Part shown: piece after piece, positions 10,398-49,920 of the stretch
Position numbering within the stretch: the stretch's first letter is position 1
Layout of the letters: every line of letters begins with the position of its first letter
DNA from: a virus
Lineage: Duplodnaviria > Caudoviricetes
Length of the DNA: 64,000 bases
IMG/VR virus record: IMGVR_UViG_3300029288_000066
Coordinates: 128,001 to 192,000 of that record
Reading direction: 5' to 3' (one strand)
Translations under genes and position numbers: made by a program
Notes under the pieces: model-generated
Databases searched by the model: none
What the model saw: only the letters and a program-made list of their open reading frames with translations
Told to the model about the DNA's origin: nothing

Positions 10398-11267
10398 TTA
10401 TTTAAAAATTTTTTTTAATCTTATTAATTCTTTTATAACTTCTTCAGATTCTTTAGTTTTATGTTTGTTTTCAAATAATTCTATTTTTTTTAATAATTTT
10501 TTCAAACTTATTTGCGACTTTACACCCTTAGATTGATTTTTTATGTGTGGCACTAATCTACAATTCGCTGGATGTCTTATTATTATAGGATTTATTCCAA
10601 TTAAAAACCCATCTTTGACTGAAAAAACATGGTCTCTACTAACTCCTTTTAAATTATTCTTCTTATTTGTTGGACTATACCATCCGATTTCTTTAATAAG
10701 TTTTATATTAAATTCTTCTGGAAACATATTTAATGAAAATTTAAATTCACATTCTGCTCTGTAAAATTTATAATATTTTACCTTACATGATTCGCAAATT
10801 GTCTTAAACCCAAAAACTTCACCTCCTTTGCAAATTTTACAATATCTCATTTTTTTCTCCACGGGTTTCTTTTTATTTATTGCTTTTTTTATTTTTCTAC
10901 AATCCTCGCAAATTGCATTATTTAGAGAAGCTCTTTTGTTTATCAGAAGTTCTTTTTCACACTTCTTACAATAGGCCTTTTTTGTTTCTGAATAATTTAT
11001 TTTTCTCAGCTTATTGTTAAATGATGCTGAACAGGATTTAGAACAAAATATTTTATTTTCACTTTTCAAACTTTCAAAAATACTACCACAATTTTTACAA
11101 TTATTATGAACTTTACTTTCTTTTATTAAAGAAATTTTTAATCTGTGGAATTTTAACTGTACCGATTTTTTAGTTCTACCAATAGTTTTAGCTATTTCAT
11201 TACATGAAATATTGGATTTTGCCAACTCAACAATTTTATCTATTTCTTTTGTATCCCATTTTTTCAT
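10398..11267 (-). CDS. Zinc-finger HNH-type homing endonuclease inside tRNA operon
   Basis: Multiple CxxC/FCSKSC; RDH...HPANC...N. Confidence 0.7.
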   Translation of the reverse strand: MKKWDTKEIDKIVELAKSNISCNEIAKTIGRTKKSVQLKFHRLKISLIKESKVHNNCKNCGSIFESLKSENKIFCSKSCSASFNNKLRKINYSETKKAYCKKCEKELLINKRASLNNAICEDCRKIKKAINKKKPVEKKMRYCKICKGGEVFGFKTICESCKVKYYKFYRAECEFKFSLNMFPEEFNIKLIKEIGWYSPTNKKNNLKGVSRDHVFSVKDGFLIGINPIIIRHPANCRLVPHIKNQSKGVKSQISLKKLLKKIELFENKHKTKESEEVIKELIRLKKIFK

Positions 11268-11596: not shown

Positions 11597-11737
11597 AATC
11601 AAGGGAAAATTTGAAAAAGTGTAACCCTTTCGGGATGGCGGGATTTGAACCCGCAATGACCTTTCGGTCACCAGATTTTTAGTCTAGTGTCTGTACCAGT
11701 TCGACAACGAAGTAACTTTTTCGATTGCCACTTGATT
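11597..11737 (-). ncRNA. Scaffold RNA copy 1 (Y RNA-like stem, Leu-type tRNA-like insert)
   Basis: GTGGCAATCGAAAAAGTTACTTCG...ACTTTTTCAAATTTTCCC enclosing D-, anticodon, variable and T-arm elements. Confidence 0.7.
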
Positions 11738-11765
11738 TTATTTTCAATATTTTAAAGAACGATGT

Positions 11766-11806
11766 AAAAAGAAAAAGGGAGCTAGTTTTTCAACTGCTCC
11801 CTTTTT
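11766..11806 (-). terminator. Attenuator terminator of Leu/Cys tRNA operon
   Basis: AAAAAGGGAGC..GCTCCCTTTTTCTTTTT hairpin; 5' arm complementary to CAATTGCTCCC in leader. Confidence 0.85.
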
Positions 11807-11826
11807 AAGTTTGGTTTATCTCGCAT

Positions 11827-11907
11827 TTACGCAAAATCATACCACGTCAACTTGCTTTGGGAGCAATTGGCTAGTAAGAGGCATAAACACAAAGATATAG
11901 TTTTCAT
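11827..11907 (-). CDS. Leu/Cys attenuation leader peptide MKTISLCLCLLLANCSQSKLTWYDFA
   Basis: 26 aa ORF between promoter and terminator; LCLCLLL run matches downstream tRNAs. Confidence 0.85.
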   Translation of the reverse strand: MKTISLCLCLLLANCSQSKLTWYDFA

Positions 11908-11940
11908 AATATATTTCTTTCTATTAAATAGTTCAATTTT

Positions 11941-11992
11941 TTACTTTCTACGCAAAGATACAAAAAAAGTTACATTAAATGCAAGTTTTTTT
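11941..11992 (-). promoter_or_regulatory. Composite promoter of tRNA operon (TTGC...TATCTTTG plus GTAAC-N16-CGTA)
   Basis: Near-identical copies at ~27560-27610 and ~49835-49885. Confidence 0.75.
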
Positions 11993-11995
11993 CAT

Positions 11996-12607
11996 TTATT
12001 TTTTAAATAGCTGATTTACAATCTCTTCTTTTATTATATTTTTAATGATTTTTCTAGCCTCTTCAGTATTTCCATTTTTTTCTACACTTATAATCTCTAC
12101 ATTTTCTGGATTATAAACTATACAGTGATAAACTTTATCAACATCATTGAACTCGAACCCTTTTTTATATAATAACATAGCATCATAGCCCAACTTGCTC
12201 ATTGCACGCATAAACGCCTGGGGTGCTCCGTTATATTGTTCTACCCTTAAAGAGTGCCACACCTCATCCTCTGTATCACTATATTTTATTGCTTCATTTA
12301 TAGCCATTAACTTATCTGTTTCTATATCAGAACTCCAATTATTCGCATAATCTTCATCACTTATCATATCAAGAAACTTCTTCAAATCTCTTCTGTTTGC
12401 TTTAGAAGCGGACTTCATATTTGTTATTACTTTTCTTGGAGCTAAATTCACAGTATATGTAAGTTTTCCCCACATTGCAGCATTTTCTTTAGAATTTGTA
12501 AAATATATTCCAGGACCTTCAGCGTCAGGGACTCCAATTTTCCCTGCAAACTCATCTGAGAACTTCTCTATTTTAGAATTTGAACCGTGATAAAAGACTC
12601 CATTCAT
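11996..12607 (-). CDS. ADP-ribosyltransferase-fold protein
   Basis: FYHGS...GPGIYFT...GYDA; C-terminal EARKIIKNIIKEEI. Confidence 0.6.
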   Translation of the reverse strand: MNGVFYHGSNSKIEKFSDEFAGKIGVPDAEGPGIYFTNSKENAAMWGKLTYTVNLAPRKVITNMKSASKANRRDLKKFLDMISDEDYANNWSSDIETDKLMAINEAIKYSDTEDEVWHSLRVEQYNGAPQAFMRAMSKLGYDAMLLYKKGFEFNDVDKVYHCIVYNPENVEIISVEKNGNTEEARKIIKNIIKEEIVNQLFKK

Positions 12608-22058: not shown

Positions 22059-22332
22059 CTCATTATACGAGAAAAAACAAATTATGTTACAACTAACGTT
22101 TTTTTGTTGGGAAATATTTTTCGTTGATTTTCTTCTGACATTCTTGCCAGGTTTCTCCTTCGAATTCTTCTACGAATTCATATCCAGCATTGTTTTCTTT
22201 GTCAAACTTACGTGTCTTGCTGTGTAAGAGAATTTGGCCGCTTTCTTTGTTTTTATACACCTGGACTATCATAAATATAAATAGTCTGGGAATGTGGAAA
22301 ATAATAAAAAAATGTGAAAATTTTGTGTAGTG

Positions 22333-22406
22333 TGGACCCAGGAGGAATTGAACCTCCGACCTTTTGATTATGAGTCAACTGCTCTGACCAACTGAGCTAT
22401 GGGTCC
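22333..22406 (-). tRNA. tRNA(CAT), probably Ile2 from operon context
   Basis: Loop CTCATAA; lies in Ile/Lys operon. Confidence 0.8.
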
Positions 22407-22412
22407 TTGGTG

Positions 22413-22486
22413 TTGTGAAGGTCGGGCTCGAACCGACATATCTCCTGCTTATAAGACAGGCGCCGTCACCATTTAGCTACTCCACA
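22413..22486 (-). tRNA. tRNA-Ile(TAT)
   Basis: Loop CTTATAA. Confidence 0.85.
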
Positions 22487-22558
22487 GTTTGTGTTTCCCC
22501 AATGGCCTCTGGCTGTGGGGAAACTAACGTATTCGTATATGAATTTGTATCCGCATCA

Positions 22559-22819
22559 TTAAAACATTATTCTATTTTCTTCAATTTGATAATCTTCAAT
22601 TCTTTTATACCATCCACCTAAAATATCGCATCCTTCTGGTATCTTACTTAACACCCTTCTTGCCATGGGAAGAGCATAATCCTCCTCAATTTTGTACTCT
22701 CGTTCACTTTCAAACAACTTAAAAAGGTTTGGATTGCTCGCCCCACTTAAGCCCTTTAGAAGTCCACTATTTTCCCATGACCTAACTATATTTTCTCTCC
22801 GCTCTTGCAAGTTTTCCAT
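22559..22819 (-). CDS. Protein resembling the N-terminal segment of T4-like gp23
   Basis: WENSGLLKGL...LFES...LPMARRVLSK. Confidence 0.55.
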   Translation of the reverse strand: MENLQERRENIVRSWENSGLLKGLSGASNPNLFKLFESEREYKIEEDYALPMARRVLSKIPEGCDILGGWYKRIEDYQIEENRIMF

Positions 22820-22869
22820 AATTTTTTAATTCAAATATATGAAATTATATTTCAAATCTCAAGTTTTTG

Positions 22870-22942
22870 TCGGAATGGAGGGAGTTGAACCCACGACCTT
22901 TTGAATATCAGTCAAATGCTCTACCAACTGAGCTACATTCCG
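22870..22942 (-). tRNA. tRNA-Ile(GAT)
   Basis: Loop CTGATAT. Confidence 0.9.
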
Positions 22943-22949
22943 TTATTTG

Positions 22950-23023
22950 TGGACAAGGTAGGATTTGAACCTACGACCCCGAAGTTATCAGCTTCGTCTT
23001 CTAACCAACTGAAATACATGTCC
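22950..23023 (-). tRNA. tRNA-Ile(GAT)
   Basis: Loop CTGATAA. Confidence 0.85.
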
Positions 23024-23024
23024 G

Positions 23025-23990
23025 TTATAATTGTTTTCCTTTTTCGTATTGCTCCAATTCTTTTTTCCCAAGCATTATGTGATAATATCCTTCTGATAAT
23101 ACAGCTTTTTTCTTTGCTTCTAATTTATCTCTATCACGTTTTTGAAACCATTCTCCCTTCATTTCTATAACTAAATTTCTCTCTGGTAAATAAAAGTCTG
23201 TAACATGAATACTCTTTTCTCCTTCAAATTCATATTCTATTCTTAACGTTTCGTAGAAATACATTTCTTTTCTTTCATCCAAAACATCCATCATTCTTAG
23301 TTCATAAGAACTTCTGTAATAAACCTCCTTCCCATACCAAGTCGTGTGATATCCAGTTTGATATTTAGTATTTACATTTGGAATTGCTCTACCTTCAACA
23401 AACGCCAGTCTTAAAGACTTAGATGTTGTTCTTAAATTAATACCGTTCTTTTTAAAGAAAAAATGTGTTGTATTATACATTATCCCATATTCATTTCTTA
23501 TTTGAATCAGTGCTTTTTTATTTGTAAAATACTCTTTTGAAAGGAGTATTAAAGCATTTTGATTTGACACCTGTAAGTTTTTTTGTAAAACTCCCAATTT
23601 GTTAAACAGATTTTTGTATTGTATGAAAGAACTACATAAATTACAATATTTTTTTTTGTTTTCATTAGAAATTTCCACCCCACAGCTTAAACATATTTTT
23701 TTATCTCCTTTTTTTTCACACAAAGGTCTCGCAGATTTTCTACGATTTCTTTCTTCATCAGAAATATTACAATTATATCTTCCATTGTTTTTACCAGAAG
23801 TTTTTAATATTCTTTCAGTAGACTGTTTTCTTCCTCTTAATTTTTCAGACGCTCTTTCATAGGATTCTTCAGTTCTAAATTTTGATGAGTATGTTCTAGC
23901 GCACTCTCTTGAACAGAATTCTCCTGTGGAATACTTACTGTATTTTATAGCTTCTTTTTTATTACAACTTTTACATTTCATAACAAACAA
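23025..23990 (-). CDS. PD-(D/E)xK (TnsA-like) homing-type endonuclease inside tRNA operon
   Basis: YRSSYE...TDFYL...IEMKG. Confidence 0.7.
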   Translation of the reverse strand: MFVMKCKSCNKKEAIKYSKYSTGEFCSRECARTYSSKFRTEESYERASEKLRGRKQSTERILKTSGKNNGRYNCNISDEERNRRKSARPLCEKKGDKKICLSCGVEISNENKKKYCNLCSSFIQYKNLFNKLGVLQKNLQVSNQNALILLSKEYFTNKKALIQIRNEYGIMYNTTHFFFKKNGINLRTTSKSLRLAFVEGRAIPNVNTKYQTGYHTTWYGKEVYYRSSYELRMMDVLDERKEMYFYETLRIEYEFEGEKSIHVTDFYLPERNLVIEMKGEWFQKRDRDKLEAKKKAVLSEGYYHIMLGKKELEQYEKGKQL

Positions 23991-24063
23991 ATTTACTATA
24001 AATATACAAAAAAATTCGAATATTCGATGCCAGATTAAAAATATTTCAAAGAACTTGTTTTTG

Positions 24064-24136
24064 TGACCCAGGCGGAGTATGATTCCGCAACCCCATCATT
24101 AAAAGTGATGTGCTCTACCAATTGAGCTACTGAGTC
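24064..24136 (-). tRNA. tRNA-Lys(TTT)
   Basis: Loop CTTTTAA. Confidence 0.85.
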
Positions 24137-24141
24137 TTTTG

Positions 24142-24214
24142 TGAACCAGGTGGGAGTCGAACCCACATCCTTCGATTTAAGAGACCGAAGCTCCACCAAT
24201 TAAGCTACTGGTTC
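24142..24214 (-). tRNA. tRNA-Lys(CTT)
   Basis: Loop CTCTTAA. Confidence 0.9.
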
Positions 24215-24218
24215 ATTG

Positions 24219-24291
24219 TACTGCTGGAGGGACTCGAACCCTCAACCCACGGAGCAAAAATCCGTTGCTCTACCAATTAAGCTACAACAGC
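24219..24291 (-). tRNA. tRNA-Lys(TTT), atypical loop TTTTTGC
   Basis: Cloverleaf with G37. Confidence 0.8.
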
Positions 24292-24301
24292 GAAATGTTT
24301 G

Positions 24302-24372
24302 TGCATTCAGTTGGAGTCGAACCAACCTCTGCGGGTTAAAAGCCCGTGGCGAAGCCGCTTTGCTATGAATGC
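24302..24372 (-). tRNA. tRNA-Lys(TTT)
   Basis: Loop CTTTTAA. Confidence 0.85.
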
Positions 24373-25264: not shown

Positions 25265-25338
25265 AGCCAACTGGAGGGATTCCAACCCCCGTAATCCGCA
25301 TTACAGGTGCGGCGCATCGAGCACTCTGCCACAGTGGC
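25265..25338 (-). tRNA. tRNA-Thr(TGT)
   Basis: Loop CCTGTAA; variant T-loop TTGGAAT. Confidence 0.8.
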
Positions 25339-25345
25339 TTTTCAC

Positions 25346-25422
25346 TGGAGCCGTAGGAGGGATTCGAACCCCCGACATCCTCATTACAAGTGAGGCGCTC
25401 TGGCCAACTGAGCTACAACGGC
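25346..25422 (-). tRNA. tRNA-Thr(TGT)
   Basis: Loop CTTGTAA, encoded CCA. Confidence 0.92.
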
Positions 25423-25431
25423 ATTCTTTTG

Positions 25432-25503
25432 AGCCAATAGAGGGAATCGAACCCCCGAATTCCTCTTTACGAAAGAGGCGCAATACCACTATGCGATATT
25501 GGC
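25432..25503 (-). tRNA. tRNA-Thr(CGT)
   Basis: Loop TTCGTAA. Confidence 0.88.
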
Positions 25504-25512
25504 ATTCTTCAG

Positions 25513-25584
25513 AGCCGACGAAGAGAATTGAACTCTTGACCTCTTCCTTACCAAGGAAGCGCTCTACCTCTGGGCTACGTCGGC
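25513..25584 (-). tRNA. tRNA-Thr(GGT)
   Basis: Loop TTGGTAA. Confidence 0.88.
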
Positions 25585-25590
25585 AGGTTC

Positions 25591-25768
25591 TGTTTAACTG
25601 ATGGGATTCCAACCCACACGTCCTATAACCTGCATTTAATTACCGCACCGCAGCCGCCCTGTGCGAAAAAATTCGAGCCCCGTTAACTGACTAACCATTC
25701 CTCGAATGACGGGGCAAGCGTCGAGGTGTTTACGGTTTAGCGACTAGCAATTCCGCCACAGTTAAACA
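25591..25768 (-). ncRNA. tRNA-like RNA with ~100 nt structured insert at anticodon position
   Basis: Acceptor TTTAACTG/CAGTTAAA, D-arm GCGGAATTGCTAGTCGC and T-arm GTGGGTTGGAATCCCAT around a GC-rich insert. Confidence 0.65.
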
Positions 25769-25770
25769 TT

Positions 25771-25846
25771 GGGTGAAAGGTCGGCTTCGAACCGACAACC
25801 CTCTGAACCACAATCAGATACTCTAACCAATTGAGCTACAATCACC
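25771..25846 (-). tRNA. tRNA-His(GTG)
   Basis: Loop TTGTGGT, G-1/C73. Confidence 0.9.
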
Positions 25847-25850
25847 ATAT

Positions 25851-25983
25851 AAAAAAGGGGAAAAGTTAGAACAGGGTTTTTCATGTAAAATCCTGGAGTT
25901 TAACCAGTACCCATTGAATTAAAAGTCAATTGCTCAACACTGAGCTAATTTTACGAAGTAGCTGTTCAGATTGCCACCTTTTT
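25851..25983 (-). ncRNA. Scaffold RNA copy 2 (Lys-type tRNA-like insert)
   Basis: GTGGCAATCTGAACAGCTACTTCG...CTGTTCTAACTTTTCCCC enclosing cloverleaf with CTTTTAA loop. Confidence 0.7.
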
Positions 25984-26016
25984 ATGTTTTCAATATTTTA
26001 AAGAACTTATTCTTAG

Positions 26017-26091
26017 GGTGTCGAACCAGATTCGAACTGGCGTTGACTAAGGTCACAGCTTAGCCGTAGAAACCAACACTACACCGACACA
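26017..26091 (-). tRNA. tRNA-His(GTG)
   Basis: Loop CTGTGAC. Confidence 0.8.
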
Positions 26092-26093
26092 GA

Positions 26094-26177
26094 AGGGGAG
26101 GAGGGATTCGAACCCCCGTAAACCCGAAGGCACTAACGTTAACAGCGTTCCGCTCTGACCAACTGAGCTACACCCCC
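26094..26177 (-). tRNA. tRNA-Asn(GTT), long variable arm
   Basis: Loop CTGTTAA. Confidence 0.8.
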
Positions 26178-26189
26178 ATGTAATTTTTT

Positions 26190-27035
26190 TTATTTTTTAT
26201 AATCTTTTAGCCATTTTCTAATTGCATTGTCAGAAACACCATATTTTTTGCCAACCGCACAATAATTTGTTTTTTTAATTTCTTGCATCAACTGTTCATA
26301 AGACGGCCTTTCAACCCTTCTTCTACTTTTTTTATAACAATCTATACATTCTTTTGCTTTTACATCCTTCTCTTTCCCACATTTGCAAACTCTTGTTTTT
26401 TCACTTTTCCTTTTAATGTTTCTAAAACAATATGTGTTTAACGTAGAATCACAATTTGGACATATGATTCTTAGATTTTTTAATCTATTATCCATATGAT
26501 TTCCATTAATATGGTCAAGAATTAAAATTAATTTATTTCCATTCCAATTTACATCCTGTCCACACAACTCACAACATTCTTTTTTTAAACCTTCATCATA
26601 CAATCTTTTTTTAAAATTAGAAGGTAAGCTTTTTCCAACTACAAAATAATATTCAATTGGGTTCTTTTTGCAACCAGTAATTACACCTTGTTCTTTTAAT
26701 CGCTTATACAGCTCTTTTTTTCCAGTAAAATGTGAAATGTCTACATTATATCGAGCAATATAGTTTTTTATTGTTGTAAAACTTGCAGATGCTGGATTAA
26801 TATTAAGATTTCTTAAAGCATCAGAATAAGAATATGCATTTTTAACAGCTTCTAGTATTTCTTTTTCTGAATATTTCCAAATTCCATACTTTGCAACTTT
26901 TAAACCAAGACGCTTTGCTTTATGAGCTACGGAATGTTTACTCTTGCCTAACTTTCGAGAACAATATATAGCACCATGCTCTTCATAATTGTTCTTAAGA
27001 AATAAAATTTCATTTTCTACCCATTTATATTTCAT
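26190..27035 (-). CDS. HNH homing endonuclease with C-terminal HTH
   Basis: LDHINGNHMDNRLKNLRIICPNC; GKKYGVSDNAIRKW. Confidence 0.85.
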   Translation of the reverse strand: MKYKWVENEILFLKNNYEEHGAIYCSRKLGKSKHSVAHKAKRLGLKVAKYGIWKYSEKEILEAVKNAYSYSDALRNLNINPASASFTTIKNYIARYNVDISHFTGKKELYKRLKEQGVITGCKKNPIEYYFVVGKSLPSNFKKRLYDEGLKKECCELCGQDVNWNGNKLILILDHINGNHMDNRLKNLRIICPNCDSTLNTYCFRNIKRKSEKTRVCKCGKEKDVKAKECIDCYKKSRRRVERPSYEQLMQEIKKTNYCAVGKKYGVSDNAIRKWLKDYKK

Positions 27036-27101
27036 ATTGACATCTTTATTATAAATATGCCAAAAAATTATTTTTTCAATATTTCAAAGAACTTAATTTT
27101 G

Positions 27102-27188
27102 CGTTTCCTGTAAGATTCGAACTCACGATGGGGATTACTCCTCGTCAGGTTAACAGCCTGATGCCGTCGGCCACTTGGCTAAAGAAAC
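27102..27188 (-). tRNA. tRNA-Asn(GTT), long variable arm
   Basis: Loop CTGTTAA. Confidence 0.8.
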
Positions 27189-27191
27189 ATA

Positions 27192-27349
27192 AATTCGGGG
27201 AAAAGGAGCAAAAGTGTTTTTTCTATACTCTAACCAACTGAGCTACGTGCTCCATTTTTTTTATTATTTGGGAGCACGACTGGACTCGAACCAGCGACCT
27301 TTTGTTATCAAGACAAATGCGAAGTAACTTTTACAATTGCCACCGAATT
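27192..27349 (-). ncRNA. Scaffold RNA copy 3 (circularly permuted Ile-like tRNA)
   Basis: T-arm and CGTGCTCC come before GGAGCACG and D-arm GCTCAGTTGGTTAGAGT inside conserved stem. Confidence 0.75.
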
Positions 27350-27374
27350 ATTTCAAAATTTTAAAGAACGATAT

Positions 27375-27412
27375 AAAACAAAAAACCCAGACTCTTTTGG
27401 AATCTGGGTGGC
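27375..27412 (-). terminator. Attenuator terminator of Thr/His/Asn tRNA operon
   Basis: ACCCAGATTC..GAGTCTGGGTTTTTTGTTTT; competes with GTCTGGGTG in leader. Confidence 0.85.
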
Positions 27413-27431
27413 TTTTTGTTTTCTTATATTT

Positions 27432-27521
27432 TTATTTTAAGATAGACATATTACACCCAGACACACATGTATTATTATGTTTGTTGGTCTTCGTGTTAAT
27501 ATGTATACTTAAAGCTAACAT
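27432..27521 (-). CDS. Thr/His/Asn attenuation leader peptide MLALSIHINTKTNKHNNTCVSGCNMSILK
   Basis: 29 aa ORF; HINTKTNKHNNT matches downstream tRNAs. Confidence 0.87.
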   Translation of the reverse strand: MLALSIHINTKTNKHNNTCVSGCNMSILK

Positions 27522-27558
27522 TTCAATATTTCCTTTTTATTTAAATAGTATGATTTTT

Positions 27559-27650
27559 TTACTTTCTACGCAAAGGTACAAAAAAAGTTACATTAAATGC
27601 AAGTTTTTTTTCGTTTATTTTTAAAATAATTTTTAAGTTGTTGATTGTTA
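27559..27650 (-). promoter_or_regulatory. Composite tRNA-operon promoter (repeat)
   Basis: ~85 bp near-identical to 49835-49920. Confidence 0.75.
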
Positions 27651-40324: not shown

Positions 40325-41082
40325 ACCTTGAGTTTACAGGCTTTAGTGAGCCAACTTTCGGAGGATTATTGTTTCCCCGCCTTATCCACATGCCTTGCGA
40401 CACGTACCGACTCAATCTCGACTGCTATGGGCAATCACTCCTATCGTCACAGACTACTCTACTGCTACTTTAACCACAACAAGGGCGCCCCCCTGCAATA
40501 GCCTTTCACAATAATCCGTTGAACTTTGACATCCAACGTCCCCAATTCATCTTGCGATGTCAGGGTCTGAGAGACCTGTCGTCCATAACGCCAGCGGAAC
40601 TTTTTCTTTGCTTCTATTGTTTTTAGAGAATAGAGCGGTTTTTACCCCGCACCAAAGTATGTGTTTAATTAAGGATGTGCCGCTGGAACAGCTTCGCCAC
40701 TTTTGGCGACGAAATACTATACACCTTCTGCGCCCTTTTGCATCAGTACGCTTTCATCTCCGAATCCTTCCTCCATCGCTGGAAGCGAGAATCCCAAAAA
40801 CAAATGGAACACGCTCTATAGTCTGCTAAACGTTGAACATTATTCCTCGGTTTTTCCTGTTACCCCTTTCGGAGCTCAATCGCCTTAACACAATTTAGAC
40901 GATATTCCACTCAGCAGTTGCCCTTGCAGAACGTACTAACCTATTGTATGCTCGACTTCCTTGTGAAAGCGGCGAGTTATAAACCCCACCTTTAATCCTG
41001 GTCACCCAGTTTATTTTGCCTGCCCCTTTCGGAACAGACCTTGACAACCCGTAGGCCACCAGTGACAGCACACTGCCACAAA
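40325..41082 (-). ncRNA. Large structured ncRNA, GOLLD-like
   Basis: ~760 nt GC-elevated segment with no credible ORF, between TATCTTTG promoter/boxA and terminator 40290-40316. Confidence 0.55.
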
Positions 41083-41199
41083 TATTTTCAATATTTTAAA
41101 GAACTTTAAATCTTGGTTACTCACCTATAATGAGCAAAGATATATAATCTAAAAACAAAAAGCAACTTTTTTCTTGTTTTTTTTTATTTTTTTTTAAAA

Positions 41200-41282
41200 A
41201 GACGTAAACAGGCCGCTCAACCACCTACCCTTGCTTTCTTCCGAACCTGGGGGAGTTCAGTAGGAGCTGGCCTATTACGCTT
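41200..41282 (-). ncRNA. ffs: SRP (4.5S) RNA
   Basis: Helix-8 signature CAGGTTCGGAAGAAAGCA in long hairpin. Confidence 0.8.
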
Positions 41283-41567
41283 TTTAAGTTACATAGATAC
41301 AGCTGAACCATTTTTCAGAGTCAATTTAAATGCGAAGGGCTTCCACTCTTGCGAGTCATACACAGCCTCACTTTCCTCACATACTGCATCAGGCGACTGA
41401 ACCTGACCTTTTTTAATAACTTAAATTTTCAATATCTTAAAGAACTTTTGCCAATGTAAATATACAAAAAAAATTCCATTTACATAGGCTCATACGAAAA
41501 AAAATAAAAAAAGTTACGAGAATCAAATAATTTTTTCTATATTTATAAAAAAATTAGGTTCTCTATA

Positions 41568-48351: not shown

Positions 48352-49212
48352 TTAATTTAATTTCTTTTCGTAATATTTAATCCATTTTCTTACTGCATTA
48401 TCAGAAACTCCATATTTTCTTCCGACTGCACTATAATTAGATTTTTTTAATTCTTCAACAAGTTCTATATAAGAAGGTCTCTGTGTTTTTCTTTGCCTAA
48501 TTTCATCACACGATTTACATCTTTTCATACCTTTACCTATTTCATTTCCACATGCACAATAATTTTTATTTTTTTCTTTAATTTCTTTTATTTTATCAAA
48601 ATATTGCTTTCCTATATTCTTTCCTCCATTAGTATTAAATGTAGCCGCACAATTTGGACAAACTATTCTTAAATTTTCCAATCTATTATCATTATGATGC
48701 CCATTTTTATGGTCAAGAATCAAACTAATTTTTTCCCCATTCCAAACTTCTCCTTGTCCACATTTCTCGCATATTTTTTGTTTAAGTTCTTCTTTATATA
48801 ATCTTTCTTTTAAATTTGTCGTATGATTATATGTTGAATTTTCAACTAATATGTCGGACAAATCAAATTTTCCAGAAACAAATCTATTACCTGAAATGCC
48901 AAAATTAAAATGTGAAATGTCAATGTTGTATTTCTCTATATATTTTTTAATAGTATTTCTGTTACCACAATGAGTTGTAATTCCCAATCTCCTAGCTACA
49001 TCAGTATAGCTTTTAGACTCACCCACAACTTTTTTAAATTTTATTTCATTGTATTTTTCATTCCTACATTCAAGATTAAGAGCAAAATGTTGTGCTTTAC
49101 CTCTAATAGATGTTTTTGTCCTTTTTAATTCATTTGCACAAAATTCACATCCGTAGATTGGATAATTCTTTTTCAAGAATTCCACGTCTTTTTCTGTCCA
49201 TTCTTTTTTCAT
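48352..49212 (-). CDS. HNH homing endonuclease (paralog of 26190..27035)
   Basis: LDHKNGHHNDNRLENLRIVCPNC; GRKYGVSDNAVRKW. Confidence 0.85.
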   Translation of the reverse strand: MKKEWTEKDVEFLKKNYPIYGCEFCANELKRTKTSIRGKAQHFALNLECRNEKYNEIKFKKVVGESKSYTDVARRLGITTHCGNRNTIKKYIEKYNIDISHFNFGISGNRFVSGKFDLSDILVENSTYNHTTNLKERLYKEELKQKICEKCGQGEVWNGEKISLILDHKNGHHNDNRLENLRIVCPNCAATFNTNGGKNIGKQYFDKIKEIKEKNKNYCACGNEIGKGMKRCKSCDEIRQRKTQRPSYIELVEELKKSNYSAVGRKYGVSDNAVRKWIKYYEKKLN

Positions 49213-49568: not shown

Positions 49569-49594
49569 CGTATTTTTATTTTAAAGAACGATAT

Positions 49595-49630
49595 AAAAAA
49601 AGAAACCCGAATCTTTTTGGGATTCGGGTC
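49595..49630 (-). terminator. Attenuator terminator of Met/Gly/Ala/Pro/Tyr/Asp tRNA operon
   Basis: ACCCGAATC..GATTCGGGTTTCTTTTTTT; competes with CGGGTATGTTTA in leader. Confidence 0.85.
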
Positions 49631-49661
49631 TGTTTATTCCTTTTATAAGTTTACAACTTCA

Positions 49662-49772
49662 TTAAGGTTTAGTATTAAACATACCCGTCCCACATCCATA
49701 ATCGGCATCAATCGCTGATGGATAGCCGCCCATCGGAGTTACTTCTAAACGATATGTAAAATTCTGTTTCAC
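49662..49772 (-). CDS. Attenuation leader peptide MKQNFTYRLEVTPMGGYPSAIDADYGCGTGMFNTKP (GTG start)
   Basis: PMGGYPSAIDADYG contains all six amino acids of the downstream tRNAs. Confidence 0.87.
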   Translation of the reverse strand: MKQNFTYRLEVTPMGGYPSAIDADYGCGTGMFNTKP

Positions 49773-49832
49773 CTTTAATTAATTTTTATACTGTTGTTAC
49801 TATTAAATATCTCAAAAAAATGTTTTTCATTT

Positions 49833-49920
49833 CTCTTCTACGGCAAAGGTACAAAAAAAGTTACATCAAATGCAAGTTTTTTTTCGTTTATTTTTAAAAT
49901 AATTTTTAATTGATTGATTT
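49833..49920 (-). promoter_or_regulatory. Composite tRNA-operon promoter (repeat)
   Basis: TTGCATTTGATGTAACTTTTTTTGTACCTTTG. Confidence 0.75.

Follow-up and report, generated by a model that had tools for sequence, protein, structure and literature searches.

Genome context of the C1 module

The window analysed here is a stretch of 64,000 nucleotides (positions 128001-192000) from a 228,886-bp IMG/VR phage record with a CheckV completeness of 82%. The DNA is AT-rich, with a G+C content of 33%, and ARAGORN placed 35 tRNA genes in the window, all of them on the minus strand. One of the tRNA clusters on this strand (cluster C) is preceded by a compact module, termed C1, whose elements follow one another in the order promoter, ORF, antiterminator within the distal part of the ORF, terminator and tRNA genes. 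The promoter (27571-27603(-)) consists of CTTG at 27603-27600, a 21-nt spacer and TACCTTTG at 27578-27571. We typed it by the pattern TTTG/TAnnTTTG, which we take to be the Bacteroidota promoter consensus, and the transcription start is predicted near 27565. Downstream of it lies a leader ORF of 29 codons plus TAA (27432-27521(-)), the only ATG ORF of at least 8 amino acids between the promoter and the terminator. The intrinsic terminator itself occupies 27375-27409(-). A related-loci search with the neighbour genes of the module (114 and 203 amino acids) returned no relatives.

The type of this promoter and a CHU_C type IX secretion domain found in one encoded protein together point to a host among the Bacteroidota. 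The 22-nt core of the promoter (27571-27592(-)) is identical to sites upstream of pgk (phosphoglycerate kinase) genes in bacterial and Bacteroidales metagenome contigs, and among metagenome-assembled genomes the 22-mer was present in Paludibacter (4/12), other Bacteroidales, Dysgonomonadaceae, Barnesiella and Draconibacterium. We treat this identity as a lead to the host and nothing more. Exact-pattern scans of viral contigs with the module promoter gave no match beyond the record itself, and a metagenome scan with the 22-mer returned mostly bacterial pgk promoters, the only phage modules being those on contigs L032 and L034 (see below). Among the contigs of four DNA runs that were compared, one of 417 nt was about 85% alike over 27381-27523. 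Apart from the landfill sample, the possible source, contigs identical to 26987-27410 and 27255-27400 turned up at low depth in three metagenomes of other studies, two of them from groundwater and one from a lake. A search of RNA runs gave none with this stretch.

Sensor codons in the C1 leader

Codons 6-18 of the leader (27468-27506(-)) form a patch, IHINTKTNKHNNT, in which 13 consecutive codons are decoded by cluster C tRNAs. They read ATA CAT ATT AAC ACG AAG ACC AAC AAA CAT AAT AAT ACA and are thus limited to Ile, His, Asn, Thr and Lys. A sequence-only reading of this DNA had claimed that nine of 12 codons are His, Asn or Thr, and counted over codons 7-18 (His x2, Asn x4, Thr x3, Ile x1, Lys x2) this is correct, as are its other statements about the sequence itself. 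As in leader-peptide attenuators, the leader favours codons that correspond to the genes it would control, here those of the tRNAs downstream. AT-rich DNA is rich in Ile, Lys and Asn codons and small ORFs are common in this genome (959 ATG ORFs of 20-40 amino acids), which would favour a reading of C1 as a chance ORF beside the ordinary terminator of an upstream gene. The C1 ORF is, however, the single extreme of the 959: it alone has 9 of 12 residues that are His, Asn or Thr, and no other has 13 successive residues drawn only from H, N, T, I, K and M. The promoter moreover separates the upstream gene from the ORF, a matched design recurs in five further modules and in three other phage sequences, and the permutation results given below contradict a chance origin, which we regard as extremely improbable.

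The three Thr codons, ACG, ACC and ACA, correspond to the anticodons CGT, GGT and TGT of tRNA-Thr genes at 25584-25346(-), as had been noticed beforehand. The proposal that there is one Thr codon for each encoded anticodon describes a real match, although its statistical support is weak. Given three Thr codons and the genome usage (ACA 0.46, ACT 0.30, ACC 0.13, ACG 0.11), the probability of drawing one each of ACA, ACC and ACG is P ~0.04, and over all modules 30 of 40 anticodons had a Watson-Crick codon in their leader against 26.8 +/- 2.3 expected under synonymous resampling (genome-wide p 0.12). Designed sampling of one codon per anticodon is suggestive, not established, and the present set of modules gives the test little power.

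Genes downstream of C1 and the nested C2 leader

The first part of the genes that C1 would gate (25266-27345(-)) comprises a Y RNA-like cassette (27205-27345(-)), tRNAs for Asn (x2) and His (x2), a Lys-like tRNA, tRNA-Thr with anticodons GGT, CGT and TGT, a Thr-like tRNA and one HNH-like ORF (26190-27035(-)). A second, nested attenuator, C2 (24481-24618(-)), then follows. It has a 27-codon ORF (24618-24535) with an Ile/Lys/Met patch, IIKKSISIKIKK, an antiterminator strand, GGCUGGGA (complementarity p 0.02), and a terminator at 24514-24481, and in Rfam it appears as a weak look-alike of His_leader and Phe_leader. The second part of the gated genes (22332-24372(-)) consists of four tRNA-Lys (TTT, CTT), three tRNA-Ile (GAT, TAT) and one tRNA-Met (CAT). 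The Ile and Lys codons of the C1 patch had been suggested to match Ile-like and Lys-like scaffold RNAs of the same operon, possibly by coincidence. They match real genes instead, namely the four tRNA-Lys and three tRNA-Ile at 24372-22332. With these tRNAs of the nested sub-operon counted, every one of the ten anticodon species in the cluster is represented in the C1 leader, nine of them elongator species and the tenth CAT, at the ATG. Between C1 and C2 we found no terminator-like site on the same strand other than a weak match within a tRNA-like gene, and the promoter copy before C2 is degenerate and lacks the TAnnTTTG box. With no intervening terminator and only this degenerate promoter, C1 probably gates entry to the whole cluster and C2 its distal half.

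Both tRNA-Asn(GTT) genes of the cluster, at 27101-27188(-) and 26092-26177(-), encode molecules of 86-88 nt whose long extra arm is not typical of this tRNA. Sequences about 78% alike to them are annotated as tRNA-Asn in phages of Cronobacter, Escherichia, Enterobacter and Klebsiella. The Thr(TGT)-like tRNA at 25266-25338(-) was detected by Rfam only (38.8 bits) and has C rather than U at anticodon-loop position 33.

Terminator, antiterminator and predicted switching

The terminator hairpin spans 27409-27385 with 10 base pairs, is followed by a T-run at 27384-27375 and has a calculated energy of -18.6 kcal/mol with its A/U extension. Its 5' arm coincides with segment 3, CACCCAGAU (27402-27410(-)), which can pair instead with the antiterminator strand, segment 2 (27453-27463(-)), whose core GUCUGGGUG at 27462-27454 lies in codons 20-23. 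The sequence-only reading had held that a segment of the leader can sequester a terminator arm, and our calculations agree: GUCUGGGUG and the 5' arm form a duplex of 9 bp with one G-U pair at -15.8 kcal/mol, compared with -5.3 +/- 2.0 for shuffled sequences (0/1000 shuffles in one test, p 0.003 in another). Minimum free energy (MFE) folds further predict a 1:2 hairpin (27436-27513(-)) that would serve as anti-antiterminator, joining the sensor codons to the distal part of the ORF and thereby engaging segment 2. For the ORF by itself the folding energy is -19.7 kcal/mol, and the leader fold has a z-score of -5.15, with 0/200 shuffles equally stable. C1 thus has the intrinsic terminator and the antiterminator of leader-peptide attenuators and, by prediction, their 1:2 hairpin. 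In these folding models the C1 leader is a classical three-state layout.

We compared the energies of enforced conformers. In the free leader, the terminator plus 1:2 conformer reached -34.9 kcal/mol versus -25.3 kcal/mol for the antiterminator conformer, and with segment 1 masked the two were near-equal, at -17.7 kcal/mol for the antiterminator and -19.0 kcal/mol for the terminator. Both antiterminator strands are transcribed before the 3' arm of the terminator. In simulations on transcripts ending before that arm, ribosomes stalled at codons 3-16 allowed segment 2 to pair with 8-10 of the 10 nucleotides of the 5' arm, and ribosomes placed at codons 18-27 blocked this pairing. The last Thr codon of the patch, ACA (Thr18), lies 5 nt upstream of segment 2, and a simulated stall there left 2/10 nucleotides paired. 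A ribosome stalled on this codon would cover part of the antiterminator, so that the codon may not act as a sensor. When the whole terminator had been transcribed, equilibrium folding gave the terminator as the MFE structure at all simulated C1 stall positions, and hence read-through must be kinetic, as in trp.

This last result bears on the question of whether C1, as a real conserved cis element with a translated ORF, might have another output, be it protection from Rho or RNase, timing of expression, or a switch of the opposite sign in which fast decoding leads to read-through. A terminator that prevails at equilibrium whatever the stall position would suit such outputs, as would a module (E, see below) that lacks an antiterminator. 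The position of the stop codon (27434-27432) speaks against them. It lies 22 nt upstream of the terminator 5' arm, and the ribosome therefore cannot mask the terminator, unlike in pyrBI-type control, where the leader ORF runs through the terminator. From the coordinates, a ribosome with the stop codon in its A site would sit between segments 2 and 3. In five of the six modules and in other phages, a strand that competes with the terminator is found just 3' of the sensor codons, a geometry that gives read-through on stalling. We consider an output other than stall-induced read-through unlikely.

Six paralogous modules in the record

The 229-kb record contains six paralogous modules, C1 and C2 included, and in each of them a promoter of Bacteroidota type, a leader ORF and a terminator precede a tRNA block. 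Genes are grouped into these blocks by amino acid, and every leader carries the amino acids of its own block. About 100 bp comprising the promoter (CTTG, 21 nt, TACCTTTG) and the 5' UTR are conserved at 83-94% identity before blocks A, B, D and E, and the degenerate copy before C2 has 77% identity. The ORFs and the terminator stems have diverged among the modules, whereas the flanks are conserved. A post-terminator box, TATATCGTTCTTTAAAAT at 27358-27375(-) in C1, is likewise conserved and in variant forms follows the terminator in modules A, B, C1, D and E; 3' of the C2 terminator it was not recognisable.

Module A has the leader patch QRFFQVVFFVQQ before tRNAs for Gln, Phe, Arg(ACG) and Val. 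Module B (11770-12012(-)) combines a promoter, a 26-codon leader (11907-11827) with the patch LCLCLLL and a terminator, and would gate five tRNA-Leu and tRNA-Cys. C1, with IHINTKTNKHNNT, stands before Asn, His and Thr, and C2, with IIKKSISIKIKK, before Lys, Ile and Met. Module D (49590-49919(-)) has a promoter, a 36-codon leader with a GTG start (49772-49662) and a terminator before tRNAs for Asp, Gly, Ala, Tyr, Met and Pro, and 13 of the last 22 codons of this leader, counted from an internal ATG, are read by its own tRNAs. Module E lies outside the window (record coordinates 194158-194005(-)) and has the patch SWSSRRRSSSR before Ser, Arg(TCT, CCT) and Trp. When the codons of each leader were set against the tRNAs of each block, the resulting 6x6 matrix was diagonal, and the true assignment was the unique best of 720 permutations, with the same outcome whether scored by count or by run length. 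The match extends to the codon level for Arg, which is split between two modules: A has CGC and CGT (anticodon ACG), and E has AGA and AGG (TCT, CCT).

Complementarity between leader and terminator arm exceeded that of shuffles in modules A, B, C1, C2 and D (5/6 modules; p 0.003-0.04, with p 0.003 for B). It was also module-specific, the true pairing ranking 2/720 among permutations, or 1/120 without module E. In module E, despite a strong terminator, no antiterminator was detectable (p 0.5). For three AGY Ser codons of this module no cognate tRNA was found in the block, and a search for tRNA-Ser(GCT) in block E did not yield one.

Matched leaders in other phage sequences

The 636-kb uncultured phage LR756504.1, reached via the HNH-like ORF, has at least seven modules of the same layout, and here the true assignment of leaders to blocks was the unique best of 5040 permutations. 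Its leaders with T, I, R, N and M precede tRNAs for Thr, Asn, Thr and Arg(ACG); I, R and M precede Arg(TCT), Ile and Met; A, I, V, E and G precede Glu, Ala, Ile, Val and Gly; FWHFHF precedes a Trp-like tRNA (hand-read from the sequence), His and Phe; L, S and C precede Leu, Ser and Cys; and two tandem leaders with K, Q, D and Y precede Asp and then Tyr, Gln and Lys. The His tRNA thus belongs to another operon in this phage, whose leader is also where the His codons are now found, the Thr/Asn leader being without His and having gained Arg. Nesting recurs as well, in two pairs (m1/m2 and m6/m7) whose upstream leaders carry codons of the next sub-operon.

Two further contigs show the same correspondence for other amino acids. 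L034, from a metagenome, has a leader with pairs of Glu codons (GAG GAA, twice) and a terminator before two tRNA-Glu. L051, a Logan contig that carries a 47%-identical relative of the gene directly upstream of C1, has an F/D/A/E patch before tRNAs for Phe, Glu x2, Asp x2 and Ala x2, with the antiterminator AAGGUCA facing UGACCUU. Leaders therefore co-vary with tRNA content in three other phage sequences (LR756504.1, L034 and L051). Operons that lacked the ORF, or whose leaders had a random composition, would have counted against the sensor reading, and these leaders match their tRNAs. For the phage analysed here, we found no tRNA-Glu in the 228,886-bp record; the relative L034 has a Glu block.

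A third contig, L032, holds a homolog of module D with 77% DNA identity and the same split antiterminator. In its leader ATG replaces GTG, and two indels of one codon each keep the frame, which is evidence for translation of the leader. This bears on a reading in which no ribosome is involved and the patch, which is by construction complementary to the anticodons of its block, binds tRNAs directly in the manner of a multi-specifier T-box. T-box riboswitches also convert tRNA status into a choice between terminator and antiterminator, but they bind uncharged tRNA directly and need no translation. In C1, by contrast, the matching triplets share one frame, bounded by a start codon and TAA, and the frame of module D survives the indels and the start-codon swap in L032. 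The C1 patch is moreover predicted to lie within the paired stem of the 1:2 hairpin and not to be exposed in a loop. The T-box covariance model gave no match at C1, either at its gathering score or at E up to 1, and no other riboswitch family was reported there even at that level. We consider direct sensing of tRNA by the RNA very improbable.

Proposed mechanism and relation to known attenuators

We propose that C1 is a ribosome-mediated transcription attenuator of the trp/his type that senses decoding capacity, is opened by stalling and gates a phage tRNA operon. We hold this reading, which the sequence-only reading had put forward in outline and which gains support from the six block-matched paralogs and the co-varying designs in other phages, to be likely correct. 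The analysis shows the anatomy, the statistics and the co-variation across phages; leader translation, stalling and read-through are the steps that we infer. Transcription would start from the host-type promoter, and the 29-codon leader would be encoded in the first 90 nt of the transcript. Its codons 6-18 would be read by exactly those tRNA species whose genes follow, namely Asn, His and Thr x3, with Lys, Ile and Met lying beyond the nested attenuator. Slow decoding of any patch codon would hold the ribosome on segment 1, GUCUGGGUG would pair with CACCCAGAU before the terminator 3' arm exists, and RNA polymerase would enter the tRNA genes. With fast decoding the ribosome would cover segment 2 and reach the stop codon, and the terminator would form. 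On an untranslated leader the 1:2 hairpin would trap segment 2, and again the terminator would form. The net effect would be negative feedback, in which the tRNA set is topped up only during a shortage of decoding capacity for its codons. The scheme assumes, for a host of Bacteroidota type, coupling of transcription and translation and translation of the leader without a Shine-Dalgarno sequence.

Multi-amino-acid patches are known from thrL (Thr, Ile) and ilvL (Ile, Leu, Val), and the C1 patch resembles them; the pheM leader attenuator controls pheST. The classical attenuators trpL, hisL, thrL, pheL and ilvL/ilvGMEDA have the same short translated leader, regulatory codons and intrinsic terminator as proposed here, the same alternative 1:2, 2:3 and 3:4 helices, and the same reading of charged-tRNA supply at the ribosomal A site (for theory, PMC1183508; for pheL, PMC3082878). 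They gate biosynthetic enzymes, whereas the phage module would gate tRNA genes. The phage system further differs in being phage-borne, in having six paralogous copies that divide the tRNA set, in nesting attenuators in tandem, and in a promoter and host of Bacteroidota type. The C1 patch mixes five amino acids and samples isoacceptor codons, with no repeats of one codon. Related in function are pheM/pheST and the histidine leader that controls hisS paralogs in bacilli, also a leader-peptide attenuator (PMC2965389), where a component of the translation apparatus is likewise gated by decoding of cognate codons; these leaders gate aminoacyl-tRNA synthetases for one amino acid, and the phage module would gate tRNAs for several. 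The genes regulated by leader-peptide attenuators are expected to serve amino-acid biosynthesis or to encode aminoacyl-tRNA synthetases, and C1 departs from this with tRNA genes, tRNA-like RNAs and HNH-like ORFs downstream. In Rfam, the best weak cmscan match, Thr_leader (RF00506), fell exactly on 27377-27520(-). It is a look-alike in layout and not a homolog, its 22.5 bits (E 0.67) falling far short of the gathering score of 55, and His_leader (RF00514; 24.6 vs 49) and Phe_leader (RF01859; 24.2 vs 55) also remained below their thresholds.

For a survey published in 2010, leader-peptide systems were confined to Proteobacteria, Actinobacteria and the Firmicutes cases that it newly described (PMC2965389), and in the literature on phage and viral tRNAs, tRNA operons or arrays and leader-peptide attenuation we came across no account of tRNA genes controlled in this way. 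Whether phage tRNA genes serve codon compensation or help the phage to escape defences that target tRNAs has been debated for decades (PMC10264068). If our reading is true, each block has a specific sensor that opens on slow decoding and the phage tRNA supply is regulated by demand, which would turn the tRNA-gene question into an assay of which depletion opens which gate. Leader-peptide attenuation would then be seen to control RNA genes, to operate in phages, in this case one with a promoter and a likely host of Bacteroidota type, and to use multiplexed patches that address several amino acids and isoacceptors together. As natural parts, the modules would also be compact devices that report the decoding speed of chosen codons. 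More tentatively, in a reading that we hold to be less likely than not, the six attenuators might together act as a distributed decoding-capacity meter for 19 amino acids that lets the phage replace exactly the host tRNAs running short in infection, including those cut by host anticodon nucleases, and thus as an inducible, codon-resolved counter-defence rather than a compensation for codon usage.

Other RNAs and genes of the tRNA operons

Three tRNA-like RNAs, the scaffold RNAs of the sequence-only reading, share conserved flanks at 27205-27345(-), 25870-25990(-) and 11620-11750(-), with GGTGGCAAT..GTTACTTCG on the 5' side and ACTTTT..TTTTCCCC on the 3' side, and their flank helices covary. 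The first of them (27345-27205) has a T-arm, a closed acceptor-like stem and a D-arm in permuted order. We considered a permuted split tRNA gene at this position and rejected it, the better fit being the tRNA-like module of Y RNA-like RNAs; the score against the corresponding module of Rfam YrlA was 30.8 bits, with a gathering score of 69. The phage also encodes a TROVE (Ro60/Rsr-like) protein (record coordinates 214082-214933(-), 72.5 bits), and the two kinds of molecule may constitute a phage Ro/Y-RNA pair.

ORFs of 281-321 amino acids lie between tRNA genes at 26190-27035(-), 10398-11267(-), 23025-23990(-) and 48352-49212(-). Their appearance is that of passengers of the homing-endonuclease type, and they would share transcripts with the tRNAs. 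The one searched, 26190-27035, has relatives within the tRNA arrays of other phages, and the arrays holding such relatives are not sorted by amino acid and were uninformative. Between two tRNA blocks the window encodes a GOLLD RNA (40325-40729(-), 185.9 bits) and a small SRP RNA (41196-41283(-), 47.2 bits). Elsewhere in the record are a suppressor tRNA with anticodon CTA, which reads TAG (record coordinates 196604-196678(-)), and a permuted tmRNA with a 26-residue tag (record coordinates 84078-84424(+)).
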